Source of the DNA: an uncultured Spirochaetota bacterium
Lineage (GTDB): Bacteria; Spirochaetota; Spirochaetia; SZUA-6; Fen-1364
Length of the DNA: 24,000 nt
NCBI GenBank assembly: GCA_963710335.1
Contig: CAVQAA010000025.1
Location: forward strand, 296,993 to 320,992
Direction of reading: 5' to 3'
Of this stretch, positions 5,183 to 22,899 are shown piece after piece. The first letter of the stretch is position 1. The number at the start of each line of letters is the position of its first letter. The position numbers and the translations under genes are program-made. A model generated the notes under the pieces. That model was given only the letters and a program-made list of their open reading frames with translations. It was not told the origin of the DNA and ran no database searches.

Positions 5183-8100
5183 ATGCGGCAAAGTCTCAAG
5201 GTCGCCATAAGCTTGCTCATTTCAATTGTCCTGTTCGCCGGGTTCAGCGTCCTTGCTTTTTCCGGGCTCTTCGACATCCTGCAGGCCAGCTTCTTCCTTC
5301 CCCGTGTCGAACAGGGGTACCAGCAACAGCTTGCCGTCCTTGGGGACAGGATTGAGAAGTACCACGCCGCGAACCTCGAGCGATTTTCGACGCTTGCCAG
5401 GAAAGACTTCGTCTCCGCCTCCTTTGAGACAAACCTTCCCGCGGAGGTGATGAGCCAGTGGGCGGACGCCATAGCCAACCTGAAGGTTTCCGCGGTGCGG
5501 GTCCTGGCGCCGGACGGACAGAAAATCGTTTTCAGCTCAATAGCCTCGGACGCAAAGGATCAGAGGCCTGACCGGTTTGCATACCGCAACTACGGGGAGG
5601 TCGACCAGGCCGTCCCGTCCATCTCCATCGTTTTGGGTGCCGGGGATCAGCCGAGACTCTTCATCGACGGCAACCAGGGCAGGTTCCTCTACCTCGTGCC
5701 AGTCTACCAGGCTGCTTCCCGAGGGGGAGGGGCTCAGCTTTTCAAGGGAACGGCCGTCTTCTATGTCGATTCGCTGGATCTCCTCAGAGATCTGCAGCTC
5801 ATGCCGCAGGTTCCCGTTACCAGCGTCGTGCTGGTCCAGAACGAAGGCGTCCTCCTCAATTTCACGGCAGCTGACCCGAAACCCGTCACGGCCGCCCTGC
5901 AGGCAACCTGGCAGGCCCATGCAGGCTCTTCTTCATTCACGTCTCCGCTGGCGCTGACCCGGGAAGGGGGCAGGACGGGCTCTTTCCTGTCTTTCTCCCT
6001 TCGACTCACGCAGGGCGGCGTGGCGAGCCTCCTCGTCGATGCGTCGGTATTTGAAATGACGGACCTCATGAAGGGCCTCCTCCTGGGCACGTTTTTTCTT
6101 ACCGTCTTTCTCATTGTTTACCTTCTTATCAACCTGAGGTCGGACCCCCTTGATGTGCTGCGCCAGAGAGTGAAGCGCTTCCAGGTTCAGCTCATCACGG
6201 AGCTGGTTGAAGGGCCGGGCGGAACGGACTGGAGCAGATGGCGTCGGGAGCTGGAGTCGCGCCAGGGGGAGATCACGTGGCAGATCCAGAGAGGCATCGG
6301 CAGAGTCTCACGCAGGCAGAAACCCCTGGTCGATGAGTACATGTCCAAGAGCTGGAACGAGATCCTGGACCTTCTCTCCCGGAGAGCTGAGACCCCGCAG
6401 CCCCCGGTCGTGGGTGCCCTGGATATCTCCCGGCTGGAAAGCCTGATCAGGAGCGCCTTGCAGAATGAGTCTTTCAAACGCAGTCTGCCCGCTCGCGAAA
6501 CACGCGCCGCGCGCGGGGAAACCTCGGAAGCAACCTCAGCAGCGCAAGGACCCGGTATTGAAGCGGTTGAGCCGGCAGAAGAGGCCGAGGCAGTAGAAGA
6601 GGCTGAGGCGGTAGAAGAGGCTGAGGCAGTAGAAGAGGCTGAGGCGGTAGAAGAGGCCGAGGCAGTGGAAGAAGCCGAGGCGGTAGAAGAGGCCGAGGCG
6701 GTGGAAGAAGCCGAGGCGGTAGAAGAAGCCGAGGCGGTAGAAGAGGCCGAGGCAGTCGAGGCTCCCGCGGTTTCTGATAAGGCCGAAGCCACTCAAGAAG
6801 AACCCGAGCTCGCCCAAGAGCTTGAAGAGGTGCCGTCCTTCGATGAAGGCGGCGTCGCGGAATTTGGCCTGCCGCAGCATGCGAAAGTCGGAGCCGTTGA
6901 TAGCGGCCGCATGCAGGGGGAGGGCGCGCTTTCCGCGCGGGCGACCCGTGAGCCGTTGATGGCACCCGCGGCCACTGAACCGGAAACGTTCCTGATGGAC
7001 TCACCGGATGAGGTTCTGGAAGAGCTTGAGGCCCTTCCAGATATACGACCGCTGCCGCCTTTGCCCTTTGAGGAAGGACTCGAGTTGCTACCGGCAGCCG
7101 AAAATGAGGAGTCGACGGCACGACTCACGGACGAGGGAGCTCTAATGAGAGACGGCGAAAGCGAAGAATCAGGCGCTTCGGATTACCCGGATCTGAAACG
7201 CCTTGAAGAGCTTTCCGATGTGGAGGAGCTTTCCGATGTCGACGAGATCGAAGACGTGGAATTTGACATGACGACGCTGACGACGGTCGAACCAGGGAAC
7301 CTTCCGGAGGAGCAGGAGCTGGGGGAGCTGGAGACCATTGATGAAGCAATGGCCGCCGTGGAGCCGGGGAGCACAAATGAGCTTTCCCTCGAGGACAAAC
7401 AAGCTGAGCTGACGAAACTCCTTGCAAACGGAGCCATCAAGACATGGACCATAGGTGAAATGCTTCATCTTGTGGAGGAAAGCAGATCCACCATCGTCAT
7501 GGAGGACGGCGTATTCAGGATCAAGGAGGAGGTCTATGGGCCCGGCAACCATGAAGACAAGCAGTTCGCGCCCGAGGCTTCCCGCAACGGAGGGCTGCGC
7601 GAGATCGCTCAAGAAGTGGTTTCCCACATGTCGGCCCAGGGCCAGGATGGTTCCCAGTCGGGAATAGGGGATATCATCAGCGATGCTGCGGTTTTTGACT
7701 TCCCTGCGGAGATGCCGAGGCAGTCCGGGACCCGCGATGAGGAGCTTTCCGGTGACCGGGAAAAGACATCCCCGATCAAGCTTACCAGAAGCGGGATAGA
7801 TTATGATGATTTTCTCTCCAACTACCCTCGATCGATCAGCCAGACCCAGCAGATGAAGTCTCTGGTCGAAGTCTCCCGCCGCGTGGCGGCCGTCAGCGCA
7901 GGGATGCTGGTCAAGGGACAGAGCGGCTATTCCCTGGAGCTGACCGTCGGCCTCAACGAAAAAAGCCGACAGCAACTGCATTTCGACCCAAGAGACCCGT
8001 TCAACTCGTTCTTCGCAGACCGGAAGGCGGTTGCCGTTGATAGAAATCCGTCAGATCTGCAAACCTGGAAGGTCCTCATCGACCAGGAGGATCTGCGCTA

Positions 8101-12303: not shown

Positions 12304-12331
12304 TTCCGCCTTCACTTAATGATCGGTTTGT

Positions 12332-12360
12332 TTGACAGGCCCATTGAATAACGCTATACT
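12332..12360 (+). promoter_or_regulatory. Candidate strong sigma70-type promoter for ptsI: TTGACA (12332-12337), 17 bp spacer, TATACT (12355-12360)
   Basis: Perfect -35, optimal spacer and a 5/6 -10. The -10 ends 8 nt before ATG 12369, with no SD in between. Confidence 0.65.
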
Positions 12361-12368
12361 CTCGCCGC

Positions 12369-14090
12369 ATGATGGAGTTCGTTGGGATCAGCGCCTCACC
12401 CGGCATTGCCCGAGGCAGGGCGTTCCTGTTCCTTGACGACAAGCTCACGGTACCTCGGCACCACATCGAAGCCTCGCAGGTCGAATACGAGTATGGAAGG
12501 TTCCTCACGGCGCTCATCAAGGCGGCCGAAGAGGTGAAGGGCCTCGCTCGGGGACGAAACGCCAAGCTCTTCGATGCCCAGATACTCATGTTCGACGACC
12601 CGGAGCTCAAGAGCAGGGTCCGAAGCGCGCTGGAAGACCAGCAGCGCAACGTGGAGTGGGTGCTCCTCCAGATCATCGAGGAAATGTCGCAGAAGCTCGA
12701 GTTGGCGGACAGCCAATACCTTCGCGAACGAACGGTGGACTTCAGCGATGCGGGAAACAGGATACTGGGCCATCTCCTTTTTCGGCCCAAAGTCCAGCTC
12801 TCCGATGTCAAAAGCGAAGTCATCCTCGTCACCCACAACCTCATGCCGTCGGACACGCTGGGACTTGACCGCAAGGTCGTGCTGGGCATTGCGGCGGACG
12901 TCGGCGGGAAGACCTCCCACACGGCCATTCTGGCGAGGTCCAGCGAGATCCCCGCGGTCCTGGGGCTCTCCGACATCAGCCGGCACGTCAAATCGGGAGA
13001 CGAGGTCATTGTCGACGGGATACGCGGCACGGTCATCGTGGAGCCGGACGATCTCACGCGGGACCTGTACGACGAGCGGAGGAAGGACTGGCAGCGCAAG
13101 TACGTCATCCTGAAGGAGTTGCGGGAGCTGCCCGCGGAGACCGTGGACGGAAAGCTCGTCTCCATAGAGGCGAACATCGAGCTGCCGGAAGAAGTGGATT
13201 CGGTTCTCACGCACGGTGGGGACGGGATCGGGCTGTTTCGATCCGAGTTCCTTTTTCTCCAGCCCAATCGCTTCCCGTCGGAAGAGGACCAGTACCAGGC
13301 ATACAGCACGGTGTTGAAGGCCATGCGCGGAAAGAGCGTGACCATCAGGACGCTGGACCTAGGCGGGGACAAGATAATGCCGGGCTTCTCCCTGGATTCG
13401 GATGCGAACCCCCTCCTGGGGTGGCGCGCAATCCGATTCTGCCTTGCCAAGCCGGACATCTTCCGCACCCAGCTACGCGCCTTGCTGCGTTCGTCGGTGA
13501 ATGGAAACCTTCGCATCATGTTTCCCTTGATATCGGGGGCAGAGGAGCTTTCCCGGATCGTCGAGACCCTGGCGCAGGTGAAGGCGGAGCTGCGCCGGGA
13601 GAATGTCCAGTTCCGGGAGGAGATCCCCATCGGGATCATGATCGAGGTGCCCTCCGCGGCGCTGTCCTCCGACATTCTTGCCGCGCAGGCGGACTTCTTC
13701 TCGATCGGAACGAATGACCTCATCCAGTACACCCTGGCGGTGGACCGGGGCAATGAGCGCGTGGCGTACCTGTATGAGCCGTTTCATCCGGGCGTGCTTC
13801 GCCTCATCCGCACCACAATCGAAAACGCCCACGCGCGCGGCCTGCCCGTGGGGATGTGCGGTGAAATGGCGGGAGACCCGCTGGCCACGGTGGTCTTGCT
13901 GGGGCTCGGCCTGGACAGCTTCTCCATGGGCCCTATTGCCATCCCGCTCATCAAGAGGATCATACGCTCGGTGGGAGTCATGGAGGCTGAGGCCTTTGCC
14001 CGGAGCCTCGTGCCAATGAGCTCGGCAGCGCAGATAGAGCAGGCCGCGCGACGGTGGATGGAGGAGCGGCTTGATTTCTTCTCGTGGTAA
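12369..14090 (+). CDS. ptsI: Phosphoenolpyruvate-protein phosphotransferase (PTS Enzyme I)
   Basis: 573 aa. Phospho-His region GGKTSHTAILARS, PEP-utilising TIM-barrel motifs (GIGLFRSEFLF, IGTNDLIQYTLAVDRGN, CGEMAGDP). Confidence 0.96.
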   Translation: MMEFVGISASPGIARGRAFLFLDDKLTVPRHHIEASQVEYEYGRFLTALIKAAEEVKGLARGRNAKLFDAQILMFDDPELKSRVRSALEDQQRNVEWVLLQIIEEMSQKLELADSQYLRERTVDFSDAGNRILGHLLFRPKVQLSDVKSEVILVTHNLMPSDTLGLDRKVVLGIAADVGGKTSHTAILARSSEIPAVLGLSDISRHVKSGDEVIVDGIRGTVIVEPDDLTRDLYDERRKDWQRKYVILKELRELPAETVDGKLVSIEANIELPEEVDSVLTHGGDGIGLFRSEFLFLQPNRFPSEEDQYQAYSTVLKAMRGKSVTIRTLDLGGDKIMPGFSLDSDANPLLGWRAIRFCLAKPDIFRTQLRALLRSSVNGNLRIMFPLISGAEELSRIVETLAQVKAELRRENVQFREEIPIGIMIEVPSAALSSDILAAQADFFSIGTNDLIQYTLAVDRGNERVAYLYEPFHPGVLRLIRTTIENAHARGLPVGMCGEMAGDPLATVVLLGLGLDSFSMGPIAIPLIKRIIRSVGVMEAEAFARSLVPMSSAAQIEQAARRWMEERLDFFSW

Positions 14091-15465
14091 CGCACGGCCG
14101 GGCCGCCGCTCCCCGGCATCCCTTCCCCGAATCGCCATCCTGGGAAGACCAAATGTCGGCAAATCATCTCTTTTCAATGCGTTGCTCGGCCGACGCCGGT
14201 CGATCACCCACTCGAATCCGGGGGTGACGCGGGACCCCGTGGAAGAGGCCTGCACCCTCGGCGGCATCCGTGCGCTCCTCATTGACACCGGCGGATTTGC
14301 CCCCGAGGGGGAGGCCATTGACCGCGTTGTTTCCGGGCGGAGCCTTGCAACCGCCCGCGCAGCGGATCTCATCCTGCTGGTGCTGGACGCGGCTGAGACG
14401 ACTCCGGAGGATGAGGACTTCATGAGCCTGCTTCGCCCGCTCTCGGACAAGCTCCTCCTGGTGGTCAATAAAGTGGACACCCCGGACAGGGATTCCCTTG
14501 TCTGGAACGCGCATTCCTATGGTTTCCCGCGGGTCATCGGCGTATCCGCGGCGCATGGCAGGAACCTGCCCGAAATCAAGGAGCTGATTGCAGCTCTGCT
14601 GGAGGAGCGGGCTTCCGAGCTCAAGACAACGGACCGGGAGACCCCGGAACCGCAGGGCGAAGCCGTGCGGATTGCCATCCTGGGTAAGCCCAACACCGGG
14701 AAGTCCAGCCTTGCGAACCGGCTCACCGGGGATGATCGCTCCATCGTGTCGCCGGTGCCGGGCACCACCCGGGACGTGGTGCAGGCGCGGTTCGAGCACC
14801 GGGGCCGGGCATTCGACATCCTGGACACCGCCGGCATCAGACGCAAGAGCCGGGTGACGGATGCAGTGGAGTACTATTCCGTCAATCGCGCCATTGAGAG
14901 CATTGAGCGGGCCGACCTGGTGTTCCTGATGATCGATGCCACGCAAGGGCTGGTTGACCAGGACAAGAAGATCGCCGGGCAAGCCCTTAAAGAAGGCCGG
15001 GGGATCGTGATTGTGCCCAGCAAGTGGGACCTCCTGGGGAAAGCGCCGGACCTCGTTGCCCGGGTGAGCGACCAGCTGAGATTCCAGTTCCCCGTGCTCG
15101 GCTTTGCGCCGATTGCGCCAATTTCCTCTCTTACCGGGTACGGCATTCGCGCGCTCCTTGACACGGCGATCTCCGTGTGGGACCAGCTCCATCGGCGTGT
15201 CACCACCGGGCGCCTGAACTCCGCCCTGGAATCGTGGATGGAACACTATCCCCTTCCCGGGCGCGGGAAGTACAAGATCCGGTTTGCAACCCAGGTCGGC
15301 TCCAATCCCATACAGTTCGTGATCTTCGTGAACCGGCCCCTCGGATTCCCCGCCTCATACATCTCGTATCTGGAAAACTGCATCCGCAGGGACCTGGGAT
15401 TCCCCCAGGTCCCCATCGCCGTCGAGGTCCGAAAAAGCGGGAAGACCGACCCGCGCGGCAGGTGA
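14071..15465 (+). CDS. der: Ribosome-associated GTPase Der/EngA (tandem GTPase domains plus KH-like domain)
   Basis: Two P-loops (GRPNVGKSSLFN and GKPNTGKSSLAN), with DTGG/DTAG and NKVD/SKWD motifs. TTG 14071 is the only plausible in-frame start upstream of the first P-loop and is preceded by GGAGGAG at 14060-14066. It overlaps ptsI by 20 nt. Confidence 0.9.
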   Translation: MISSRGNARPGRRSPASLPRIAILGRPNVGKSSLFNALLGRRRSITHSNPGVTRDPVEEACTLGGIRALLIDTGGFAPEGEAIDRVVSGRSLATARAADLILLVLDAAETTPEDEDFMSLLRPLSDKLLLVVNKVDTPDRDSLVWNAHSYGFPRVIGVSAAHGRNLPEIKELIAALLEERASELKTTDRETPEPQGEAVRIAILGKPNTGKSSLANRLTGDDRSIVSPVPGTTRDVVQARFEHRGRAFDILDTAGIRRKSRVTDAVEYYSVNRAIESIERADLVFLMIDATQGLVDQDKKIAGQALKEGRGIVIVPSKWDLLGKAPDLVARVSDQLRFQFPVLGFAPIAPISSLTGYGIRALLDTAISVWDQLHRRVTTGRLNSALESWMEHYPLPGRGKYKIRFATQVGSNPIQFVIFVNRPLGFPASYISYLENCIRRDLGFPQVPIAVEVRKSGKTDPRGR

Positions 15466-15470
15466 GGCCG

Positions 15471-17228
15471 ATGAAATCGTGGAGCATCGGCGAGGTGGCG
15501 CGGTTTCTCGGGGTCAAGCCGTATATCCTGCGCTACTGGGAAGGCGAGCTTCCCCTGCTCTCGCCGCGCAAGGGGTTATCGGGGCGGCGCGAGTATTCCA
15601 GCCGCGAAATACGCCTCCTCATGAGGTTCCGCTACCTCCTCCATGAGAAAAAGTTCACGATCGAAGGGGCCAAGCGGCGAATGTGGGAGGAGCTGGGAGC
15701 CGGAGAGCAGAATGTGGCTGCGCGGTTCGACGAGGTGCGGGCCGACCTTGTCGAGGCTCTCATGACGCTTCAGCGCGGCAGGGCAGCGGGCCCGGAAGGG
15801 CCCTCTGACGAGGGTTGCAACAGCAACGTCGAGGGAAAAAAAATGACGGAAAAGGAGATCAGGGAGGCGTGCGAGGCAAACGGGCAGGAGCACTTGTTTG
15901 CTCATTGGGACGCCCGGCCCGCCGCTATGAAACAGAAGCTGCTTTCCGATCTTGCCGCACTGGACTTCGGCAGGCTGGATGAGCTTCGGAGCCGACTGCG
16001 CGAGCCGCCGGCAGCGACCGTGACTGACGTTCCCGTCCCTGCCCCTTACATTCCAATCTCCCTCAGCGCATCAGACCATGCCGCGCGGGAAATCGGTGAG
16101 GACCTGATCCGGCGCGGGAAGACGGCTATTCTCACCGTGGCGGGCGGGCAGGGGTCACGCCTGGGTTTTGACGGGCCCAAGGGAATGTTCCCCATAAGCC
16201 CCCTGCGCAAGCTGACCCTTTTTGCCCTTCACGCGGAGAAGCTCCTTGCGGCCCGCAGGTGGTACGGGGCGGAGATACCCTGGCTCATCATGACCAGCCC
16301 GTCCAACCGTGCTGAAACGGAGGAGTACTTCCGCCGGGAGGACTGGTTCGGGCTGGGCAGCGGATCTGTCCTCCTTTTCTCCCAGGGGACCCTGCCATCA
16401 CTGTCCCCGCAGGGCAGCCTCCTGATGGCGCCGGACGGCGGGCTTTTTGTCAACCCGAACGGTCATGGAGGCGTCGTCAGCGCTCTTACGGACTCGAGGG
16501 TCATTCAGGAAATCCGTGACAGGGGAATTGAAGAGCTGTTCCATTTCCAGGTGGACAACCCCCTGGTGCGCGTGCCGGACCCCGTTTTTCTGGGGTTTCA
16601 CCGCAAGGAAAGCTCGGAGATCTCGTCGAAAGTCATCGAAAAGGCCTATCCCGAAGAGAAGCTCGGCGTCATTGCCCTTGTTCGGGAAAAGCCATGCGTG
16701 ATCGAGTATTCCGACTTCGACGAGCAGTTGATGAGTTCCCGGGGGCCGGACGGGAAGCTTGCTTTCCCCCAGGGCTCGATTGCCATCCACGTGCTCAACG
16801 TGGATTTCCTGTCCCGAACCGGCAGGTCGCTTCCTTTGCATATTGCGCGGAAGAAGGTGAAGGCCCTCAAACCCACGCACGAAGGAACCGAAATTGGAGA
16901 GGAAGACGCCGTGAAGATGGAGATGTTCATTTTCGACGCGATCCCGATGGCGGGAAAGGCGATCTTCTTCGAGACGGAGCGCATCGAGGAGTTCGCGCCG
17001 CTGAAGAATCGCGAGGGTCTTGATTCCATCGAGACGTGCGTTCGCGGACAGATCGAGAAGGCCGCCAGATGGCTGTCCGCATGCGGTGTCGAGGTGCCGC
17101 GGGACGGCAATGGCAGGTCTCTGCATGCCATCGAGATCAGCGCGCTCTTTGCCTGGGACCGGCAGGTGCTGGCTGCGAAACGCGGGAGCCTCAAGGACAG
17201 GATTGATGAAGACACGCTTCTTGCATAG
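15471..17228 (+). CDS. Single ORF fusing an N-terminal MerR-family HTH domain (about aa 1-124) to a UDPGP-family UDP-sugar / UDP-GlcNAc pyrophosphorylase-like enzyme (from internal ATG 15843)
   Basis: MerR HTH: WSIGEVARFLGVKPYILRYWEGE...GRREYSSREIRLLMRFRYLL. Enzyme part: GQEHLFAHWD..., LTVAGGQGSRLGFDGPKGMFPI, NPNGHGG, FQVDNPL. There is no stop between the two parts. The internal ATG 15843 has its own GAGGG SD. The track start at 15177 is an extension inside der. Confidence 0.8.
   Translation: MKSWSIGEVARFLGVKPYILRYWEGELPLLSPRKGLSGRREYSSREIRLLMRFRYLLHEKKFTIEGAKRRMWEELGAGEQNVAARFDEVRADLVEALMTLQRGRAAGPEGPSDEGCNSNVEGKKMTEKEIREACEANGQEHLFAHWDARPAAMKQKLLSDLAALDFGRLDELRSRLREPPAATVTDVPVPAPYIPISLSASDHAAREIGEDLIRRGKTAILTVAGGQGSRLGFDGPKGMFPISPLRKLTLFALHAEKLLAARRWYGAEIPWLIMTSPSNRAETEEYFRREDWFGLGSGSVLLFSQGTLPSLSPQGSLLMAPDGGLFVNPNGHGGVVSALTDSRVIQEIRDRGIEELFHFQVDNPLVRVPDPVFLGFHRKESSEISSKVIEKAYPEEKLGVIALVREKPCVIEYSDFDEQLMSSRGPDGKLAFPQGSIAIHVLNVDFLSRTGRSLPLHIARKKVKALKPTHEGTEIGEEDAVKMEMFIFDAIPMAGKAIFFETERIEEFAPLKNREGLDSIETCVRGQIEKAARWLSACGVEVPRDGNGRSLHAIEISALFAWDRQVLAAKRGSLKDRIDEDTLLA
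15836..15843 (+). repeat. A8 homopolymer at the MerR/pyrophosphorylase junction
   Basis: Read directly: GAGGG AAAAAAAA TGACGG. The last A is the first base of the internal ATG. With 7 A the upstream frame would end at TGA, overlapping that ATG as ATGA. Confidence 0.95.
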
Positions 17229-18522
17229 GGTCTGCCTCTTCTCACTCGCGCTTGCCCTGGGGATTGCCCCGCTTGAGGCATGGACGCCCGTCAGCGATGA
17301 GACGGCGCTGGGAACCGTGCCCGAGAACTGGGAAGCCCGGACCCTTTTGCGGGACGTCATTTTCGCGTCCGCGCGGGATGCCGCCGCCTCGCCGCGGAGA
17401 ATCGTGCCACAGGTCGAAGCCGGGGACGATGTCTCTTTCACGGCCCAGGTTCAGGATGATGCGGTATATCTGGTGTTTGCCAACAGGAAAGGAAACTCCT
17501 TCCCCCTGGCGGATGCCGGAACCTTCATCATCAAGAGGAGCCTTCGCGACGGAAAGTTCCTCCAGGCCAAGATATTTATCCAGAACGACCCCGGCTGCTT
17601 CCTGAGGCTTTTCCCCGAGGGCGACAGGACCGCCATGGACATCGTGCTCTTCAATGAGAGCTTCCAGACCCACGTCATCCTGCCGTCCCCGTTCCAGGAC
17701 CTTCTTACCTCCTCTTTTGCCCGGATCGTGGACCTTTGCAGGCCCGCTGTAGACTGGTCTCTTGTCATGGCCCCTTCCCAGGGCCCCGGTGACGAACGCC
17801 TCGAAAGAATGGTGAGTGCCTTGCGCAGCCAACTGGGGAAGCTGCGGGACATGGATGATGGGGCGATGGATGCAAGCGGCAGGCTTGTCTTCATTGCCTC
17901 CGGGAAGCCGGCCCCCTCCAGGCTGGGCGGCTTCAACTGCTCGGGATTCGCGAAGTGGGTGATTGACGGCTTTTACTTTCCCCTGACCGGTTCCTTCACG
18001 GATATCGATGTTCTTCGATCAAGGGATTCCGACCTCCTGGGCAAAGCGTGGAGCGCCAGGTTCGAGGAGGAGCAGGATCCCTACTTCGGGCTTGACTGGT
18101 CGCGCGGCCTTGCGCGGGCAATCGCAAATGCCCGGACCGGCGAGATGCCAGGCCCCGAGTCACTCGACGTGACCGAAAGCGAGCGGTTTGCGCACGTGAA
18201 GGACGTTGGCTACAGGGTGGAAAGCCTGCCGGGGCTGCTGTACTTCCTGGCGCGCGAGCGCCCCGGAACGATGTACCTCGGTTCCGTGAACGCGCGCTCG
18301 AAAGGCGTTCCGCAGGGCGCCAGCATGCTGCTCCGCCAGCACCATCATGTCGTCGTGCTTCTGCCCTTCTTCGACAAGGCCGGGGATTTTCGCCCGGTTG
18401 TCATGGAAAGGAACAAGGAGACGAGCGTCCCGTCCCTTATCAGGCGATACGCCGGTGAATACATAAACCTCGTGAGAGTCGATTCCACCGGCCAGTTTGC
18501 CCCTCCCGAGATCCCGCGGTAA
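17206..18522 (+). CDS. Secreted hypothetical protein (438 aa) with a possible papain-fold / NlpC-P60-like Cys motif
   Basis: ATG 17206 gives a signal peptide (MKTRFLHRVCLFSLALALGIAPLEA|WTP). It overlaps the upstream gene by 23 nt. GGFNCSGFAKWVIDG (Cys codon 17938-17940) resembles the DCSGF catalytic motif, and a QHHHVVVL His cluster lies at 18340-18348. The function call is speculative. Confidence 0.78.
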   Translation: MKTRFLHRVCLFSLALALGIAPLEAWTPVSDETALGTVPENWEARTLLRDVIFASARDAAASPRRIVPQVEAGDDVSFTAQVQDDAVYLVFANRKGNSFPLADAGTFIIKRSLRDGKFLQAKIFIQNDPGCFLRLFPEGDRTAMDIVLFNESFQTHVILPSPFQDLLTSSFARIVDLCRPAVDWSLVMAPSQGPGDERLERMVSALRSQLGKLRDMDDGAMDASGRLVFIASGKPAPSRLGGFNCSGFAKWVIDGFYFPLTGSFTDIDVLRSRDSDLLGKAWSARFEEEQDPYFGLDWSRGLARAIANARTGEMPGPESLDVTESERFAHVKDVGYRVESLPGLLYFLARERPGTMYLGSVNARSKGVPQGASMLLRQHHHVVVLLPFFDKAGDFRPVVMERNKETSVPSLIRRYAGEYINLVRVDSTGQFAPPEIPR

Positions 18523-18558: not shown

Positions 18559-18587
18559 TTGACAGGTCTTCCCGATAGGTTTACTAT
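18559..18587 (+). promoter_or_regulatory. Candidate sigma70-type promoter for the giant coiled-coil gene: TTGACA (18559-18564), 17 bp spacer, TACTAT (18582-18587)
   Basis: Perfect -35, 17-bp spacer and a TAnnnT -10. It is followed by GGAGG (18602-18606) and ATG 18613. The track's TTG start at 18559 is the -35 hexamer itself. Confidence 0.6.
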
Positions 18588-18612
18588 TGATAAAACCTCT
18601 GGGAGGGGGACA

Positions 18613-21600
18613 ATGCTACCAATTTTCTCGATTGGTAATCTGATTACCTTCCTTGCTGTCCTTCTAATCCTGGTCATCATTCGAGCGCTGGATCGCAACA
18701 ACAGATCGCTGGAAAAGCTCAAAAGGTTCAGCGACAAAATCGCGGCAAACATCTCGGCCCTGGCTGAGGAGAAGACCGCCCAGATCGGCGCGCTCGTCGC
18801 CGGCCTCCAGGGAAGCCTTGCCGCCGGCAAGGAGCTGATGTCCAGGGCTCGAACCGTGGAAGAAGCCCTCCAGGCCAGGTCTGGGGAGGTCGAGGGGATT
18901 CGCAAGAGACTCCTTGATTATGAGAAGAGCTTCAGCGACATCACCTCGGTGTCGACGCGCCTTGACCAGGCTCTTAGAAAGCTGCGCGCGGAAGCGGAGG
19001 TCGCTGACTCCGTTGGCAAGAAAATCGGCGAAACCGCGGGGCGCCTCGAGAAACTGGAGAAGAGGCTTCCTGAGATTGAAGCAGGCTCAAGCGCTCGCGC
19101 ACGGCAGGCCCTGGAGGCGGCCCGAGCGGAGGTTGTTTCTGTCGTAGAGACCAGGGTCGGCGCGCTGGCTTCCAACGTCAACGCATCGGAAAAGAAGCTG
19201 AAGGATTTTTCCGCCTATATGGCGCACCTTGAAGCGCGGGAGGAACAGGCGGAGAAGGAAAGGGCGGCATACCTCTCCCGGTCCCTTGAGGCATTCGAGG
19301 CAGACCTGAACGCCAGGCTTTCGAAGGCGCGCGAGCGCGGGGAAACCCTGGAGGGGGAGGTCTTCGGCCGTCTGGCAACCAGGATCAAAGAGGATGAGGC
19401 CGCTTTTGCCCGGAGCATCGAGGCAATCGAGGCGCGGCTGGCCGATTATCAGGGCGATGTCGACTACCGGATCAAGGCTCTGGAGGAGTCCAGCGATATC
19501 GAGGCCCTGCGCGTTTCTCTGGCTGAAAGCCTGCAGAAGATGGCGGCAGGCGTGCGCGTGGAGATGAAGGAGACTGCCGCAAGTCTCGTTGCGGGATGGC
19601 AGGCTGAAATCACCGCGGCCGCAAGCGCCAGGGAAAAGCTCCACGCCGGCCTTGCTGAAGTGCACGCCGGGCTGGAAGAGCTCAAGACCCGCGCCTACCA
19701 GGACGTGGAGAAGGGCCTGGCCGTCTTCGAAGATGAGTTCTTTGCCGACCTGCGCCAGAGGGCGGAGCAGGCCCTGGACAAGGTGGAGGGTTTCGAAGGT
19801 GACCTGAAGGCGCGGATATCCTCCTCAGATGAATCGGTGAAGACGCTGGGGGAGAAGATGTCCTCCTTCCAGGTTGACGTTGCGGACAGGATGAAGAAGA
19901 TGGCCGCAGACCTTGTTGCCGGTTGGCAGACTGAAACTGCCTCCGCGGCCAGCGCCCGCAAACAGATCAGCGCGGAGCTGGAAAAGCTCAAGACAAACGC
20001 ATATCAGGACGTGGAAAAAGGACTTGCTGTTTTCGAGGACCAGTTCTTTGCAGACCTGCGCCAGAGGGCGGAGCAGGCGCTGGACAAGGTGAAAGGCTTT
20101 GAAGGCGACTTGAAGGCTCGGATATCCTCCTCAGATGAGTCGGTGAAGACGCTGGGTGAGAAGATGTCCTCCTTCGAAGCGGACGTGGACGGCAGGATGA
20201 AAAAACTGGCCACGGACCTGGTTGCGGGGTGGCAGATCGAAACCACCGCCGCGGCAAGCGCCCGGCAGCAGATCAGCGCGGACCTGGAAGAGCTCAGGGC
20301 AGGCGCCCACCAGGAGGTGGAAAAAGGACTTGCTGTTTTCGAGGACCAGTTCTTCGCGGACCTGCGCCAGCGGGCCGCCCAGGCGCTGGACAGGTACCAA
20401 CTCTGGCAGGCGGATGTCGAGAAACGGATGGAAGCATTCGAGGGCGAGTTGAAGTCCCGGCTTGCTTCCTCTGACGATGCCATGCAGGGCCTGAGGGAGG
20501 CTTTGCGCGTCGAGGTTGAGAAAACGCGCAAAGACTCGTCACTGGCAATCGAGAAGGAAACCGCCGGTCTCAGAGAGACGCTGGATGCCGCCGTACGCAA
20601 GGGTCAGCGGGAAATCGAGTCGAGGCTCCGGGAGATGTCTGCTGAGCTGGAGACCGGCCGCAAAGACATGGGGGACGTGCTGGACGCCTCCCGAGCGGAA
20701 GTCGTGGCCTGGGAAGGCCGGGTGCGGCAACAGCTCTCGGAGACGGAGGTTTCCGTCGCGGAGAAGATCTCTCGGCTTGCCTCCGAGGCAGAGTCTTCCA
20801 TCGGCGTTGTGCGGGACGAGTTCACATCCCAGAAAGACGACATGCTCGCTGTCTTCACCCAGGAAAGGAATGCCATCAAGGCGGAGCTGAAGGACCTGGG
20901 GGAGAGGATCTCGGGATTCGAGGGCGACTTGAAGCGCTCTGCCGAGACGGCGGTGCAAGGCATTCGGATCCAGATGGAGAAGGCCGGCAAGGGGACGGCG
21001 GCGGCCCTGGAGAAGGAGCTTGCCGCAGTGAAGGAAGCGCTGGAGACCAGGAGCGCGTCCATGCACGGGGAGATCGAGAACCGGATGCAGGAGCTTGCCG
21101 CGCTGCTGGAGGCCGGCCGCAAGGAGGCAGCAGCCCAGGCGGAGTCGGCGCTCGGCGCCATCCGCGGCAGCTTCGCCTCGCAGAGGGACGAGCTGATGAC
21201 GGCTTCCGCGGCGGAGCGGGAGGCCCTGAAGAAGCAGATTGCCGAAATGGCGGAGAGGGTCGGTTCCTTCGATGCGGAGCTGTCGCGCACCACGGACTCC
21301 ACCATGGAGGCCATCCAGGTGCTGAGGGATGCCCTGCACGAGGAAGTGGAAAAGGCGCGCGGGGAGTCGTCCCTTGCCATGGAGAAGGACCTTGCGTCCC
21401 TGCGGGAGTCCCTGGACGGCGCGTCGCACCGGATGCAGAAAGAGATAGAATCGCGGATGAGCAGCATCACCGCGGAAATGGAAACGAACAGGAAAGAAGT
21501 GTCGCAGCTGCTGGAAGCATCCAGCACGTACGTCACCGCGTGGGAAACAAAGACGCGGCAGCGGATGTCCGAGTCAGAGGCTGCAATCGCCAGGAGGGTT

Positions 21601-22899
21601 GCTGCCATGGAATCCGAAGCCGGTTCGTCGGTGGAAGCGGTGCAGGAAGCGTTCGCGGCCCAGAAAGAGGAGCTGATTGCGGCTTCCAGCGCGGAGAACG
21701 CGGAGTTCAAGAGCCAGCTCGCCGAGATGGGGCAGAAGATTTCCGCATTGAAGGCCGAGCTTTCCCGGTCTTCCGAGGAGACACTGGAGAACCTGCGTAC
21801 GGAAGCGGAGACCCTCCAGGCGGAAAGCCAGAAGCGGATCCGGGATTTCCAGGCGGACGTCGAGACGAGGATAAAGGAACACCGGCAGCTCATGACGGAA
21901 AGCCGCGAAAAAGCCGAAGGAATGCAGGAAAAGCTGGTGGCAAAGATCGATGAGAGCTACCGCCTCATGTCGACGAACCTCGCCGACATCGAAAAGCGGG
22001 TGAAGTCGTTCACCGCGCAGACGCGTCTTTTCGAGCGAGCGGATTCCCTGAAGGTCGGACTGGAAGGCAACATCGAGGAGATGAAGAAAGAGATCGCGAA
22101 GCTGGGGGCGGAGAAGGCGGAGCTTGCGGAAACCGAGCTGCAGCTGGCACGGACAAAGAAGCTGGCGGACGAGGTTTCCCAGAAGCTGTCCCGGTTCCTT
22201 GCGGAGAAGCGGCGCATCGACGAGATGGAAGGCGAGTTCAAGAAGCTCCTCACTTTGTCACGGGACATCGATCTGAAAGTGAACACCCTTTCGGGCAGCC
22301 ATGACGCTCTCCAGCAGATCCAGGCCAAGGTTCGCGAGTTCGAGGAGATGGGGAAAGTCGTGGAGACCGGCGTGGAGAGGCTGGACAAGAAGCAGCAGAT
22401 CATCTCCGTCACCGCGGAAGGCGTGGACAAGAACTTCCAGCGCCTGGAGACCATGGAGAAGACCATCAAGGAGACGGACCAGGAAACCGCGGCCCTGGAG
22501 GCAAAGGTGAGGTCCCTCATGACCGAGTACGAGACGCTGGCCGGACGCAAAAAGGACGCGGAAAGCGCCATGGAGATTTCCGGGAGGCTCACGGCCGTCA
22601 TCGAGGATCTGGAGCAGAGGCTGGAGAAAGCCCAGAACTCCCGGGAATGGCTGGCCAGGACTGAGACGCGCTTCGAGGAGATTGGCCGCCAGGCGCAGGA
22701 GCAGGTGCGCCTTCTTGAGAGCATCGTGAAGTCTGAAACCAAGAAGGAGAAAGGGGACAAGGGCGCCCCTCCCATGGACAAGCGGGAAACCGTGGTCAAG
22801 CTCTCACATCAGGGCTGGTCGGTGCAGGAGATCTCCCGGGTGACCCAGCTCAGCCGCGGCGAGGTGGAGCTGATCCTGGAGCTTGCTCCCAAGGTTTGA
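18613..22899 (+). CDS. Giant (1428 aa) N-terminally membrane-anchored protein, helical by composition, built from repeats, with a C-terminal HTH-like motif
   Basis: MLPIFSIGNLITFLAVLLILVIIRALDRNNRS is a single TM with a positive-inside flank. About 1350 aa of E/A/K/R/L-rich sequence with recurring modules follows. The protein ends in KLSHQGWSVQEISRVTQLSRGEVELILELAPKV. I recognise no family. Coiled-coil content is inferred from composition, not computed. Confidence 0.88.
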   Translation: MLPIFSIGNLITFLAVLLILVIIRALDRNNRSLEKLKRFSDKIAANISALAEEKTAQIGALVAGLQGSLAAGKELMSRARTVEEALQARSGEVEGIRKRLLDYEKSFSDITSVSTRLDQALRKLRAEAEVADSVGKKIGETAGRLEKLEKRLPEIEAGSSARARQALEAARAEVVSVVETRVGALASNVNASEKKLKDFSAYMAHLEAREEQAEKERAAYLSRSLEAFEADLNARLSKARERGETLEGEVFGRLATRIKEDEAAFARSIEAIEARLADYQGDVDYRIKALEESSDIEALRVSLAESLQKMAAGVRVEMKETAASLVAGWQAEITAAASAREKLHAGLAEVHAGLEELKTRAYQDVEKGLAVFEDEFFADLRQRAEQALDKVEGFEGDLKARISSSDESVKTLGEKMSSFQVDVADRMKKMAADLVAGWQTETASAASARKQISAELEKLKTNAYQDVEKGLAVFEDQFFADLRQRAEQALDKVKGFEGDLKARISSSDESVKTLGEKMSSFEADVDGRMKKLATDLVAGWQIETTAAASARQQISADLEELRAGAHQEVEKGLAVFEDQFFADLRQRAAQALDRYQLWQADVEKRMEAFEGELKSRLASSDDAMQGLREALRVEVEKTRKDSSLAIEKETAGLRETLDAAVRKGQREIESRLREMSAELETGRKDMGDVLDASRAEVVAWEGRVRQQLSETEVSVAEKISRLASEAESSIGVVRDEFTSQKDDMLAVFTQERNAIKAELKDLGERISGFEGDLKRSAETAVQGIRIQMEKAGKGTAAALEKELAAVKEALETRSASMHGEIENRMQELAALLEAGRKEAAAQAESALGAIRGSFASQRDELMTASAAEREALKKQIAEMAERVGSFDAELSRTTDSTMEAIQVLRDALHEEVEKARGESSLAMEKDLASLRESLDGASHRMQKEIESRMSSITAEMETNRKEVSQLLEASSTYVTAWETKTRQRMSESEAAIARRVAAMESEAGSSVEAVQEAFAAQKEELIAASSAENAEFKSQLAEMGQKISALKAELSRSSEETLENLRTEAETLQAESQKRIRDFQADVETRIKEHRQLMTESREKAEGMQEKLVAKIDESYRLMSTNLADIEKRVKSFTAQTRLFERADSLKVGLEGNIEEMKKEIAKLGAEKAELAETELQLARTKKLADEVSQKLSRFLAEKRRIDEMEGEFKKLLTLSRDIDLKVNTLSGSHDALQQIQAKVREFEEMGKVVETGVERLDKKQQIISVTAEGVDKNFQRLETMEKTIKETDQETAALEAKVRSLMTEYETLAGRKKDAESAMEISGRLTAVIEDLEQRLEKAQNSREWLARTETRFEEIGRQAQEQVRLLESIVKSETKKEKGDKGAPPMDKRETVVKLSHQGWSVQEISRVTQLSRGEVELILELAPKV
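19561..20400 (+). repeat. Long in-frame tandem repeat, about 2.7 units of 327/306 bp (109/102 aa)
   Basis: The LVAGWQ codons recur at 19585, 19912 and 20218. The units share VEKGLAVFEDxFFADLRQRAEQALDKVxGFEGDLKARISSSDESVKTLGEKMSSF. There is a 38-nt identical patch at 20011 and 20317. Confidence 0.9.

Follow-up and report, generated by a model that had tools for sequence, protein, structure and literature searches.

A MerR-type domain fused to a UAP1-like pyrophosphorylase in uncultured Spirochaetia: a conserved fusion with a probable origin in an overlapping gene pair

Introduction

Enzyme-regulator fusions, MerR-type regulators with diverse C-terminal modules, and the joining of genes at an overlapping stop and start codon are all known. 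NadR and BirA, for example, join a helix-turn-helix (HTH) to a nucleotidyl-transferring or adenylating enzyme, TnrA and GlnR are MerR-type regulators controlled by glutamine synthetase, and a 1-nt change at a stop/start overlap is a well-known route to fused genes. New among them is the combination of a MerR-type DNA-binding domain with a nucleotide-sugar pyrophosphorylase. It is found in a gene of 585 codons, here called merR::uap, at 15471..17228 of a 24,000-nt stretch of DNA (the window; contig CAVQAA010000025.1, positions 296,993 to 320,992) from an uncultured Spirochaetota bacterium. Full-text searches of the literature gave no description of a MerR-UDPGP/UAP protein.

Precedents exist for a MerR-type regulator under the control of enzymes and for a bacterial enzyme of the UAP1 type. 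MlrA is a MerR-type regulator controlled by PdeR and DgcM (PMC3715855). On the enzyme side, the bacterial UAP1-like protein NagU of S. aureus makes most of the UDP-N-acetylglucosamine (UDP-GlcNAc) of that organism, and also regulates DacA through direct binding (preprint 10.64898/2026.06.23.733835). The preprint mentions neither spirochaetes nor MerR; NagU is cited here as another bacterial UAP1-like enzyme.

We hold with high confidence that merR::uap is a genuine, conserved fusion, and that it is derived from, or interconverts with, a gene pair coupled by the overlapping stop and start codons ATGA. Our explanation as a whole, in which the fusion came from such a pair, keeps the relic of the second start codon, and makes of the enzyme a trigger enzyme, appears probable. 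Its parts deserve different degrees of confidence and are taken up in turn.

The fused gene and its two domains

The open reading frame (ORF) runs in frame and free of stops from the ATG at 15471 to the TAG at 17226-17228; this and the other parts of the locus are on the forward strand. The initial annotation of the window, made from the letters alone, saw a MerR HTH continuing without a stop codon into a complete UDPGP-family enzyme, and both the ORF and the Pfam matches agree. The N-terminal part is a MerR-type winged HTH at aa 5-71 (15483..15683). It matches Pfam MerR_1 with an E-value of 6e-13 (49.1 bits against a cut-off of 21.6) and Pfam MerR (PF00376) with 32.5 bits against 28.2. Residues R21, Y22, W23 and E24, and G38, R39, R40 and Y42, which belong to the HTH and the wing, are invariant in an alignment of 80 homologues whose identity to the query is 59-87%. 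Among solved structures, the N-terminal domain of CarH/LitR comes closest in sequence, with a marginal E-value of 1e-3. In NCBIfam the MerR part has sub-threshold similarity to CarH and HspR, and the enzyme matches nothing.

In an AlphaFold2 (AF2) model of the 585-aa fusion, with a mean predicted local distance difference test score (pLDDT) of 88.5, the winged HTH is confidently placed (aa 1-76, pLDDT ~80-90). Next comes a predicted long helix, aa 82-105 (15714..15785), a candidate for the alpha5 dimerisation helix of MerR proteins; its pLDDT is ~40-50 in what is a monomer model. A disordered linker follows (15768..15842; pLDDT below 50 for aa 100-121), and the linker alignment shows its length to be hypervariable, from 0 to ~130 aa in homologues. 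In lineages where the two genes are separate, the stand-alone MerR protein stops right after the long helix, so the MerR part would have no effector-binding region of its own.

The rest of the protein, aa 125-585 (15843..17225), is a UDP-N-acetylhexosamine (UDP-HexNAc) pyrophosphorylase domain of the UAP1/AGX1/NagU-like kind, a family listed under EC 2.7.7.23/83. Its Pfam core, UDPGP PF01704, covers aa 216-515 (16116-17015) with an E-value of 8e-31 and 107 bits against a cut-off of 22. In the AF2 model the enzyme fold begins at about aa 122-127, at the relic start described below, and has a pLDDT above 90. The best sequence matches in the Protein Data Bank (PDB) are fungal and human UDP-GlcNAc pyrophosphorylases (UAP1/AGX1), with E-values of 2e-69 to 1e-61 and a span of aa 6-455 within the domain; its PDB matches to UDP-sugar and UDP-glucose pyrophosphorylases are much weaker. 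The catalytic motifs AGGQGSRLG...PKG, EYS, FxFD and PLKN are kept. Aligned with UAP1, the residues G225-G228, R230, K237, E412-S414, F486, F488, D489 and K512-N513 are invariant in the 80 homologues. From the sequence, the enzyme is likely to be specific for UDP-HexNAc.

Fusions of another kind occur among bacterial UAP1-like homologues, where the enzyme is joined to D-Ala-D-Ala ligase (Ddl), phosphoglucose isomerase (PGI), phosphomannose isomerase (PMI) or guanylate kinase (P0189, P0157, P0218 and P0261). No other regulator fusion was seen within the enzyme family, the long homologues carrying Ddl, PGI, PMI or guanylate kinase. The Ddl, PGI and PMI fusions in the enzyme clade would fit a role in the supply of cell-wall and hexosamine precursors.

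Conservation of the fusion

The simplest objection to a gene of this kind is that an error in sequencing or assembly joined two neighbours: the true sequence at the junction, which here has a run of eight A's, would be A7 or A10, and the two genes would be coupled by ATGA. The initial annotation listed such an indel beside a genuine fusion among its explanations. Homopolymers are the classic site of such errors, the window lies on a contig of 398 kb that may be a long-read assembly, and assemblies of that sort do break the frame of this very gene.

The relatives speak strongly for a genuine fusion. A search was made of a database of 5.8 billion proteins, and the best 120 matches were classified. 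One of them, P0001, is 100% identical to the 585-aa fusion. About 112 of the 120 are full-length MerR+UDPGP proteins (PF13411/PF00376 plus PF01704) of 566-650 aa, with 57-86% identity to the query and 100% query coverage. Where a taxon is named they belong to Spirochaetia or Spirochaetes, and many come from JGI, MEGAHIT or SPAdes contigs. At the level of genomes, the fused ORF is unbroken in 26 species-representative loci, many of them in MEGAHIT or SPAdes assemblies, and it stays in frame down to ~51% identity and in one case to ~40%. Close relatives down to ~51% identity are thus all fused in frame, MEGAHIT, SPAdes and JGI contigs without a junction homopolymer included; genes that are separate occur only in more distant lineages. 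An error in the window would have to recreate, by chance, the exact frame that is conserved in the clade. We think the chance of an indel behind the fusion minimal, and regard the fusion as the conserved state in every close relative. The number of A's in the window is supported modulo 3 because the frame is conserved.

The frame breaks seen in other assemblies are worth recording in their own right. On very long metagenome contigs (340-980 kb, possibly long-read), merR::uap has single-base breaks in L001 (3519-5386), L018 (5001-6918) and L033 (5001-6819); in L018 and L033 the breaks fall inside the enzyme. Fragmented members of the P0008 cluster likewise lie in long ENA contigs. On such contigs gene callers give MerR and UDPGP as two proteins, which is an artefact, or break the product into pieces of 153-360 aa. 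Statistics on domain architecture that draw on long-read-like assemblies should be read with this artefactual splitting in mind.

Two candidates for a natural split among close relatives were set aside. P0015, a close match with the UDPGP part only, starts at a contig end, and its upstream frame is open. P0032, from locus L001, might have represented a natural A7 state; relative to the near-identical and fused L004 it has a 1-nt deletion within a repeated Ala/Pro-rich linker. Neither candidate involves an A run.

The initial annotation called the architecture unusual. This stands in that the protein is uncharacterised in the literature, and not in the sense of rarity within the lineage, from which more than 100 distinct database proteins with the MerR+UDPGP architecture are available. 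When proteins are clustered at 50% identity, the fused family amounts to one full-length representative (P0078) and a few partial ones among 1,359 strong homologues, the rest being essentially all enzyme-only. The architecture is thus abundant within a single lineage and restricted to it. We read merR::uap as a chromosomal gene, passed on vertically, of uncultured Spirochaetia. The fused proteins carry only an enzyme label in the databases, UTP--glucose-1-phosphate uridylyltransferase or UAP.

Split orthologues and the origin of the fusion

In about 19 Spirochaetota loci further removed from the window (39-53% identity and 27-70% GC, all from short-read assemblies), merR, of 99-117 aa, and the enzyme are separate genes. 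In 15 of these the TGA stop of merR overlaps the ATG or GTG start of the enzyme gene as ATGA or GTGA, e.g. GAGAAATGAGCG, GCGCGATGAACC and GGATCATGAATT; in the other four an in-frame stop is followed by a spacer of 3-9 nt. The window shows how little separates the two arrangements. Met125 is encoded by an internal in-frame ATG at 15843..15845, the Met-Thr codons ATG ACG contain a TGA in the +1 frame at 15844..15846, and a net deletion of 1 nt anywhere in the linker would end the MerR frame at that TGA. That the loss of one base gives an ATGA stop/start overlap had been noticed in the initial annotation; both states are now found among orthologues, and the near-identical contigs L001 and L004 differ by exactly the 1-nt deletion that gives the ATGA split.

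The enzyme domains were placed on a neighbour-joining (NJ) tree with 200 bootstraps, rooted on enzyme-only Planctomycetota. The split loci are basal and paraphyletic, and the fused genes occupy three or more separate positions, namely L048, the pair L026 and L029, and a large clade that holds the window. The bootstraps require 3-6 parsimony changes of state, with at least three in 200/200; the root is split in 177/200, and all fused genes are monophyletic in 0/200. The tree is a rough one, built from genomes of 27% to 71% GC. On this tree, the transition from split to fused, or the reverse, has occurred at least three times. The toggling between fusion and coupled genes that was first suggested for the window thus holds on an evolutionary scale.

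In the history that we propose, the ancestral state would be a merR gene of ~105 aa and an enzyme gene, translationally coupled by a 4-nt ATGA or GTGA overlap, an arrangement that survives in sister lineages. A 1-nt change of frame would have removed the stop codon and fused the two.

The retained start of the enzyme gene

If the enzyme gene once had a start of its own, its traces may be sought at the junction. In the window, the internal ATG is preceded by GAGGG (15831..15835), a Shine-Dalgarno (SD)-like sequence by its pairing with the anti-SD, with a spacer of 7 nt. The linkers of the fused proteins, which otherwise cannot be aligned, close with the conserved motif (E/G)-G-(E/D)-(E/D)-M. 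The column of the junction is Met in 60 of the 80 fused homologues and Val in 6 more, and some fused loci without the junction Met have GTG or TTG there. The position of Met125 is that of the ATG or GTG of the overlap in the split loci.

Anti-SD pairing at the fused junction ATGs has a median of -7.1 kcal/mol, and 96% of them reach -6 or lower. The 229 other in-frame ATGs of the same ORFs have a median of -3.5 kcal/mol, and 27% reach -6 or lower; for the genuine starts of the split enzyme genes the median is -5.7 kcal/mol. The difference between junction and other ATGs has a Mann-Whitney p of 1.7e-9, a value that is overstated because related loci are treated as independent, as they also are in the codon counts that follow. 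In the six codons before the junction ATG, Gly is encoded by GGA 14 times, GGG 8 times and GGC once (22/23 GGA/GGG); gene-wide the counts are GGC 308, GGG 206, GGA 131 and GGT 60 (48% GGA/GGG). The pattern of SD and codons is consistent across independent fused lineages. In the split loci the same purine motif lies in another frame, within a Lys/Glu/Gly tail of MerR, which argues that a nucleotide signal is conserved here rather than a peptide.

On the simplest reading of this comparison, the fused ORF still contains the ribosome-binding site (RBS) and the start codon that the enzyme gene had in its ancestral state, and both may be functional even now. Ribosomes starting at 15471 would make the 585-aa fusion, and those starting at 15843 a free enzyme of 461 aa, which is probably also made. 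That one locus could yield both products had been proposed from the window alone, and the conservation of SD and start at the nucleotide level now lends it comparative support. The same proposal described the internal SD as near-ideal. The SD is there, but the adjective needs correction, as the ATG at 15471 pairs more strongly with the anti-SD (-10.0 vs -6.4 kcal/mol). As to actual use, the evidence leaves initiation at 15843 evenly poised between functional and silent. With its SD and start retained, merR::uap nevertheless stands out as a candidate for the expression of two products by one fused gene.

The linker varies in a further way. In one fused subclade (P0017, P0018, P0034, P0035, P0050, P0051 and P0066; in L017 at ~5265-5470) tandem units of ~8 aa, such as EKPASSRM, DKPAGSRT and ENSASSRK, follow the EGEDM motif. 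The copy number of the unit differs between relatives, which marks the linker as a hotspot of repeat expansion.

The run of eight A's at the junction

What drew attention to the locus was the A8 run at 15836..15843, two Lys codons AAA AAA with flanking A's, of which the last is also the first base of the internal ATG. The run, the GAGGG with its 7-nt spacer and the ATG at 15843 are all borne out in the sequence. The initial annotation went on to suggest that the run could be a slippery or phase-variable switch, whose changes in length, by replication, transcriptional or translational slippage, would toggle between the fusion and a separate regulator and enzyme. The idea has its attractions. 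A8 is the sole homopolymer of seven or more bases in the window (61% GC), in which base composition predicts ~0.08 runs of A8 or longer; it lies exactly where the loss of 1 nt gives the ATGA overlap with an SD in place; fused and split states are both functional in nature; and transcription can show low-level slippage on long A runs.

The comparison with relatives tells against a switch. It was anticipated that orthologues might carry A7 or A8 at this place. The closest relatives are fused and read GGGAGAAAAGAC-ATG, GGGGAAATGCA-ATG, GGGGGACACGCC-ATG, GGGAGAAATGCC-ATG and GGGGGAAAAGCG-ATG at the position of A8, with no homopolymer in any of them. No relative has the run, not even those of 86%, 80% and 77% identity, so it is not a selected or conserved device. 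Thus, of the features of a contingency locus, a coding homopolymer whose length sets the frame is present, and retention of the tract in orthologues is not. No second sequence of the species turned up for a comparison of run length: an exact-flank pattern scan of metagenome contigs gave none, P0001 was not located on a contig, and its 90% cluster has one member. The genes around it (secY, rpoA, rny, der) are housekeeping genes, a setting unlike that of a contingency locus. Ribosomes that shift by -1 on A_AAA_AAA would enter an unconserved frame of 55 codons and miss the TGA, and a +1 shift would reach the TGA without a stimulatory stop or rare codon. Altogether, a switch at A8 seems very unlikely.

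Programmed -1 or +1 ribosomal frameshifting at A_AAA_AAA, of the dnaX or prfB type, was considered separately and rejected, the motif being unconserved and the shifted frames leading where has just been described.

The junction region is rich in purines and in A in the relatives too. Most simply, then, A8 would be a lineage-specific, A-rich and unstructured spacer, encoding two Lys, of the relic initiation region, which reads GAGGG-A7-ATG. As a switch, the feature for which the locus was first noticed is most likely incidental and probably of little importance. The interest now lies in a family of regulator-enzymes that is uncharacterised and occurs in nature both fused and split, in the internal start that it has kept, and in its bearing on routes to UDP-GlcNAc that bypass GlmU.

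Gene neighbourhood and promoter

The fused gene sits in a core housekeeping context of secY, rpsD, rpoA, rny, ymdB, a tlyA-like gene, ptsI and der. The der/engA GTPase gene (14071..15465; two MMR_HSR1 stretches and a KH_dom-like domain) ends with a stop codon 5 nt before the MerR start at 15471, and in nearly every related locus with a merR gene, der is the next gene upstream of merR/uap. Downstream lies gene X (17206..18522), of 438 aa and without a Pfam match, which shares its first 23 nt with the fusion gene and keeps its place in nearly all related loci. It is followed by a gene for a 1446-aa protein (18559..22899) that has internal repeats and, from its sequence, is apparently a coiled coil. 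The order ptsI-der-merR-uap-X (an apparently secreted protein of ~430 aa)-giant coiled-coil protein is common to fused and split lineages.

The N-terminus of gene X resembles a signal peptide (MKTRFLHRVCLFSLALALGIAPLEA), and its motif GGFNCSGFAKW may resemble the catalytic Cys motif of NlpC/P60-type cell-wall peptidases. In the 1446-aa protein the segment VEKGLAVFEDQFFADLRQRAEQALDK is present three times. This protein has an N-terminal hydrophobic segment; in many loci a homologue of 29-86% identity follows gene X.

A sigma-70-like promoter, TTGACA-17-TATACT (11/12 matches), precedes ptsI at 12332..12360. On tight gene spacing alone, it is the probable operon promoter for ptsI-der-merR::uap-X. 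It is part of a 55-nt divergent intergenic region (around 12316-12368) that is strikingly conserved across related loci, the promoter itself being present in ~40 of L001-L070 and its spacer GGCCCATTGAATAMCGC being conserved within the GC-rich clade. The promoter ends only 8 nt before the ptsI ATG, so the ptsI mRNA should be leaderless or nearly so. Upstream of the -35 element a ATGATCGG box recurs in most loci, from ~40% to 70% GC. It was considered as a MerR operator and rejected, its position relative to the -35 element shifting between lineages; more likely it belongs to the promoter or 5'UTR of the divergent GerMN gene.

What the MerR domain may be doing

That merR and the enzyme gene are kept translationally coupled or fused across deep divergence suggests that their products work together. 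In the scheme that we propose, the enzyme most likely makes UDP-GlcNAc or another UDP-HexNAc for the cell envelope, and at the same time would serve as the sensor or oligomerisation module of a MerR DNA-binding domain without an effector domain of its own. Occupancy by UTP, GlcNAc-1-P or UDP-GlcNAc, or the oligomeric state, would then be coupled to the transcription of target genes. The link between regulator and enzyme would be covalent in the lineage of the window and presumably non-covalent in the split lineages. Such trigger-enzyme coupling of the pyrophosphorylase and the MerR domain is the model with the best support, and is offered tentatively, as something that, from the genes themselves, we come near to expecting without quite doing so. 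Its most specific version, in which a UDP-GlcNAc-forming pyrophosphorylase is the ligand-sensing subunit of a minimal MerR factor, fused or ATGA-coupled across spirochaetes, and the internal RBS sets the ratio of regulator-enzyme to free enzyme, is doubtful as a whole.

A different possibility is that the MerR-like domain is vestigial or structural, serving as a nucleoid tether or as a handle for dimerisation of the enzyme, and that operon neighbours were joined without any regulatory coupling. The long, disordered linker would suit this, as would the promoter evidence and the existence of a lineage without merR, both given in the next paragraph. A domain on its way out would hardly be expected to keep its HTH and wing residues invariant over 80 homologues, or to score well above the threshold of Pfam MerR_1. 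Further, the adjacency of merR and enzyme, coupled or fused, persists over deep divergence and 27-71% GC, which points to selection on co-expression or interaction. We consider a vestigial or merely structural MerR domain unlikely.

Several observations weigh against the explanation that we favour, a conserved fusion with a relic start and a trigger enzyme. Classical MerR-activated promoters have a dyad and a spacer of 19-20 bp, whereas the one strong promoter of the cluster has no dyad and its spacer is of 17 bp; an inverted-repeat search found no convincing dyad near the ptsI promoter or near a promoter-like site at 18559. In three Spirochaetia loci of 68-70% GC (L051, L056 and L060), der is followed after a gap of ~35-105 nt by the enzyme gene, and there is no merR, which indicates that the enzyme can work without MerR; in this lineage merR was either lost or never acquired. 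The sugar loop reads GHGG in all spirochaete and most planctomycete members, where the eukaryotic enzymes have GNGG, and this makes the substrate specificity uncertain. At the junction, about 12 of the 80 fused homologues lack both Met and Val, so that the internal start is not universal. To these should be added the non-independence of loci in the SD and codon statistics, the roughness of the tree, and the possible long-read origin of the window, in which the exact number of A's is not verifiable. The lineage without merR also has its use, as the natural comparison group for what MerR adds.

If the scheme is true, a nucleotide-sugar pyrophosphorylase would be a new sensor module for the MerR family and for trigger enzymes, in uncultured spirochaetes of soil and peat. 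It would be the first such enzyme to act as the sensor of a transcription factor, and would tie the supply of envelope precursors to transcription. The fused and split orthologues would then represent a natural experiment in the conversion of a protein-protein trigger enzyme to a one-component regulator. By 'Rosetta stone' reasoning, they predict a physical interaction of regulator and enzyme. The locus also bears on the recent evidence that some bacteria make UDP-GlcNAc for the cell wall by a eukaryote-like UAP1/NagU enzyme and not by GlmU.

Comparison with known systems

In closing, it is useful to set merR::uap beside the systems that it most resembles. As in CarH/LitR, BmrR and TipAL, an N-terminal MerR-type winged HTH and a helix are followed by a C-terminal module that would be the signal input. 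Here, the module is a complete metabolic enzyme, which is a separate polypeptide in sister lineages, and no MerR-type promoter or operator was identified in the cluster. With the trigger enzymes PutA, BirA and NadR the fusion shares the presence of DNA-binding and active-site domains in one polypeptide; it differs in the class of the HTH (MerR) and in the enzyme, and control of its DNA binding by a ligand is what we would infer by analogy.

The split lineages are closer to TnrA/GlnR with glutamine synthetase, and to MlrA with PdeR/DgcM, in that a minimal MerR protein without an effector domain is coupled to an adjacent enzyme gene. The enzyme and the pathway are different, and the interaction of MerR and enzyme is here a prediction from the fusion.

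The enzyme part belongs with UAP1/AGX1, and probably with NagU, in the family PF01704; with UAP1/AGX1 it shares homology over the full length and the motifs AGGQG(S/T)RLG...PKG, EYS, FxFD and PLKN. The characterised members have no DNA-binding domain, and the sugar loop GHGG of the fusion, typical of its bacterial clade, differs from the eukaryotic GNGG. NagU nonetheless provides a precedent for the bacterial use of this type of enzyme in making cell-wall UDP-GlcNAc, and for its moonlighting by binding a partner protein.

Finally, in the manner of its fusion the gene follows the pattern of fusion and fission at overlapping stop and start codons: a 1-nt change at the 4-nt overlap joins the two ORFs, and both states, with intermediates, are visible. 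It departs from the usual case of fusion at an ATGA junction in that a single orthologous family has undergone the transition three times or more, and in that the internal SD and start codon have been retained.

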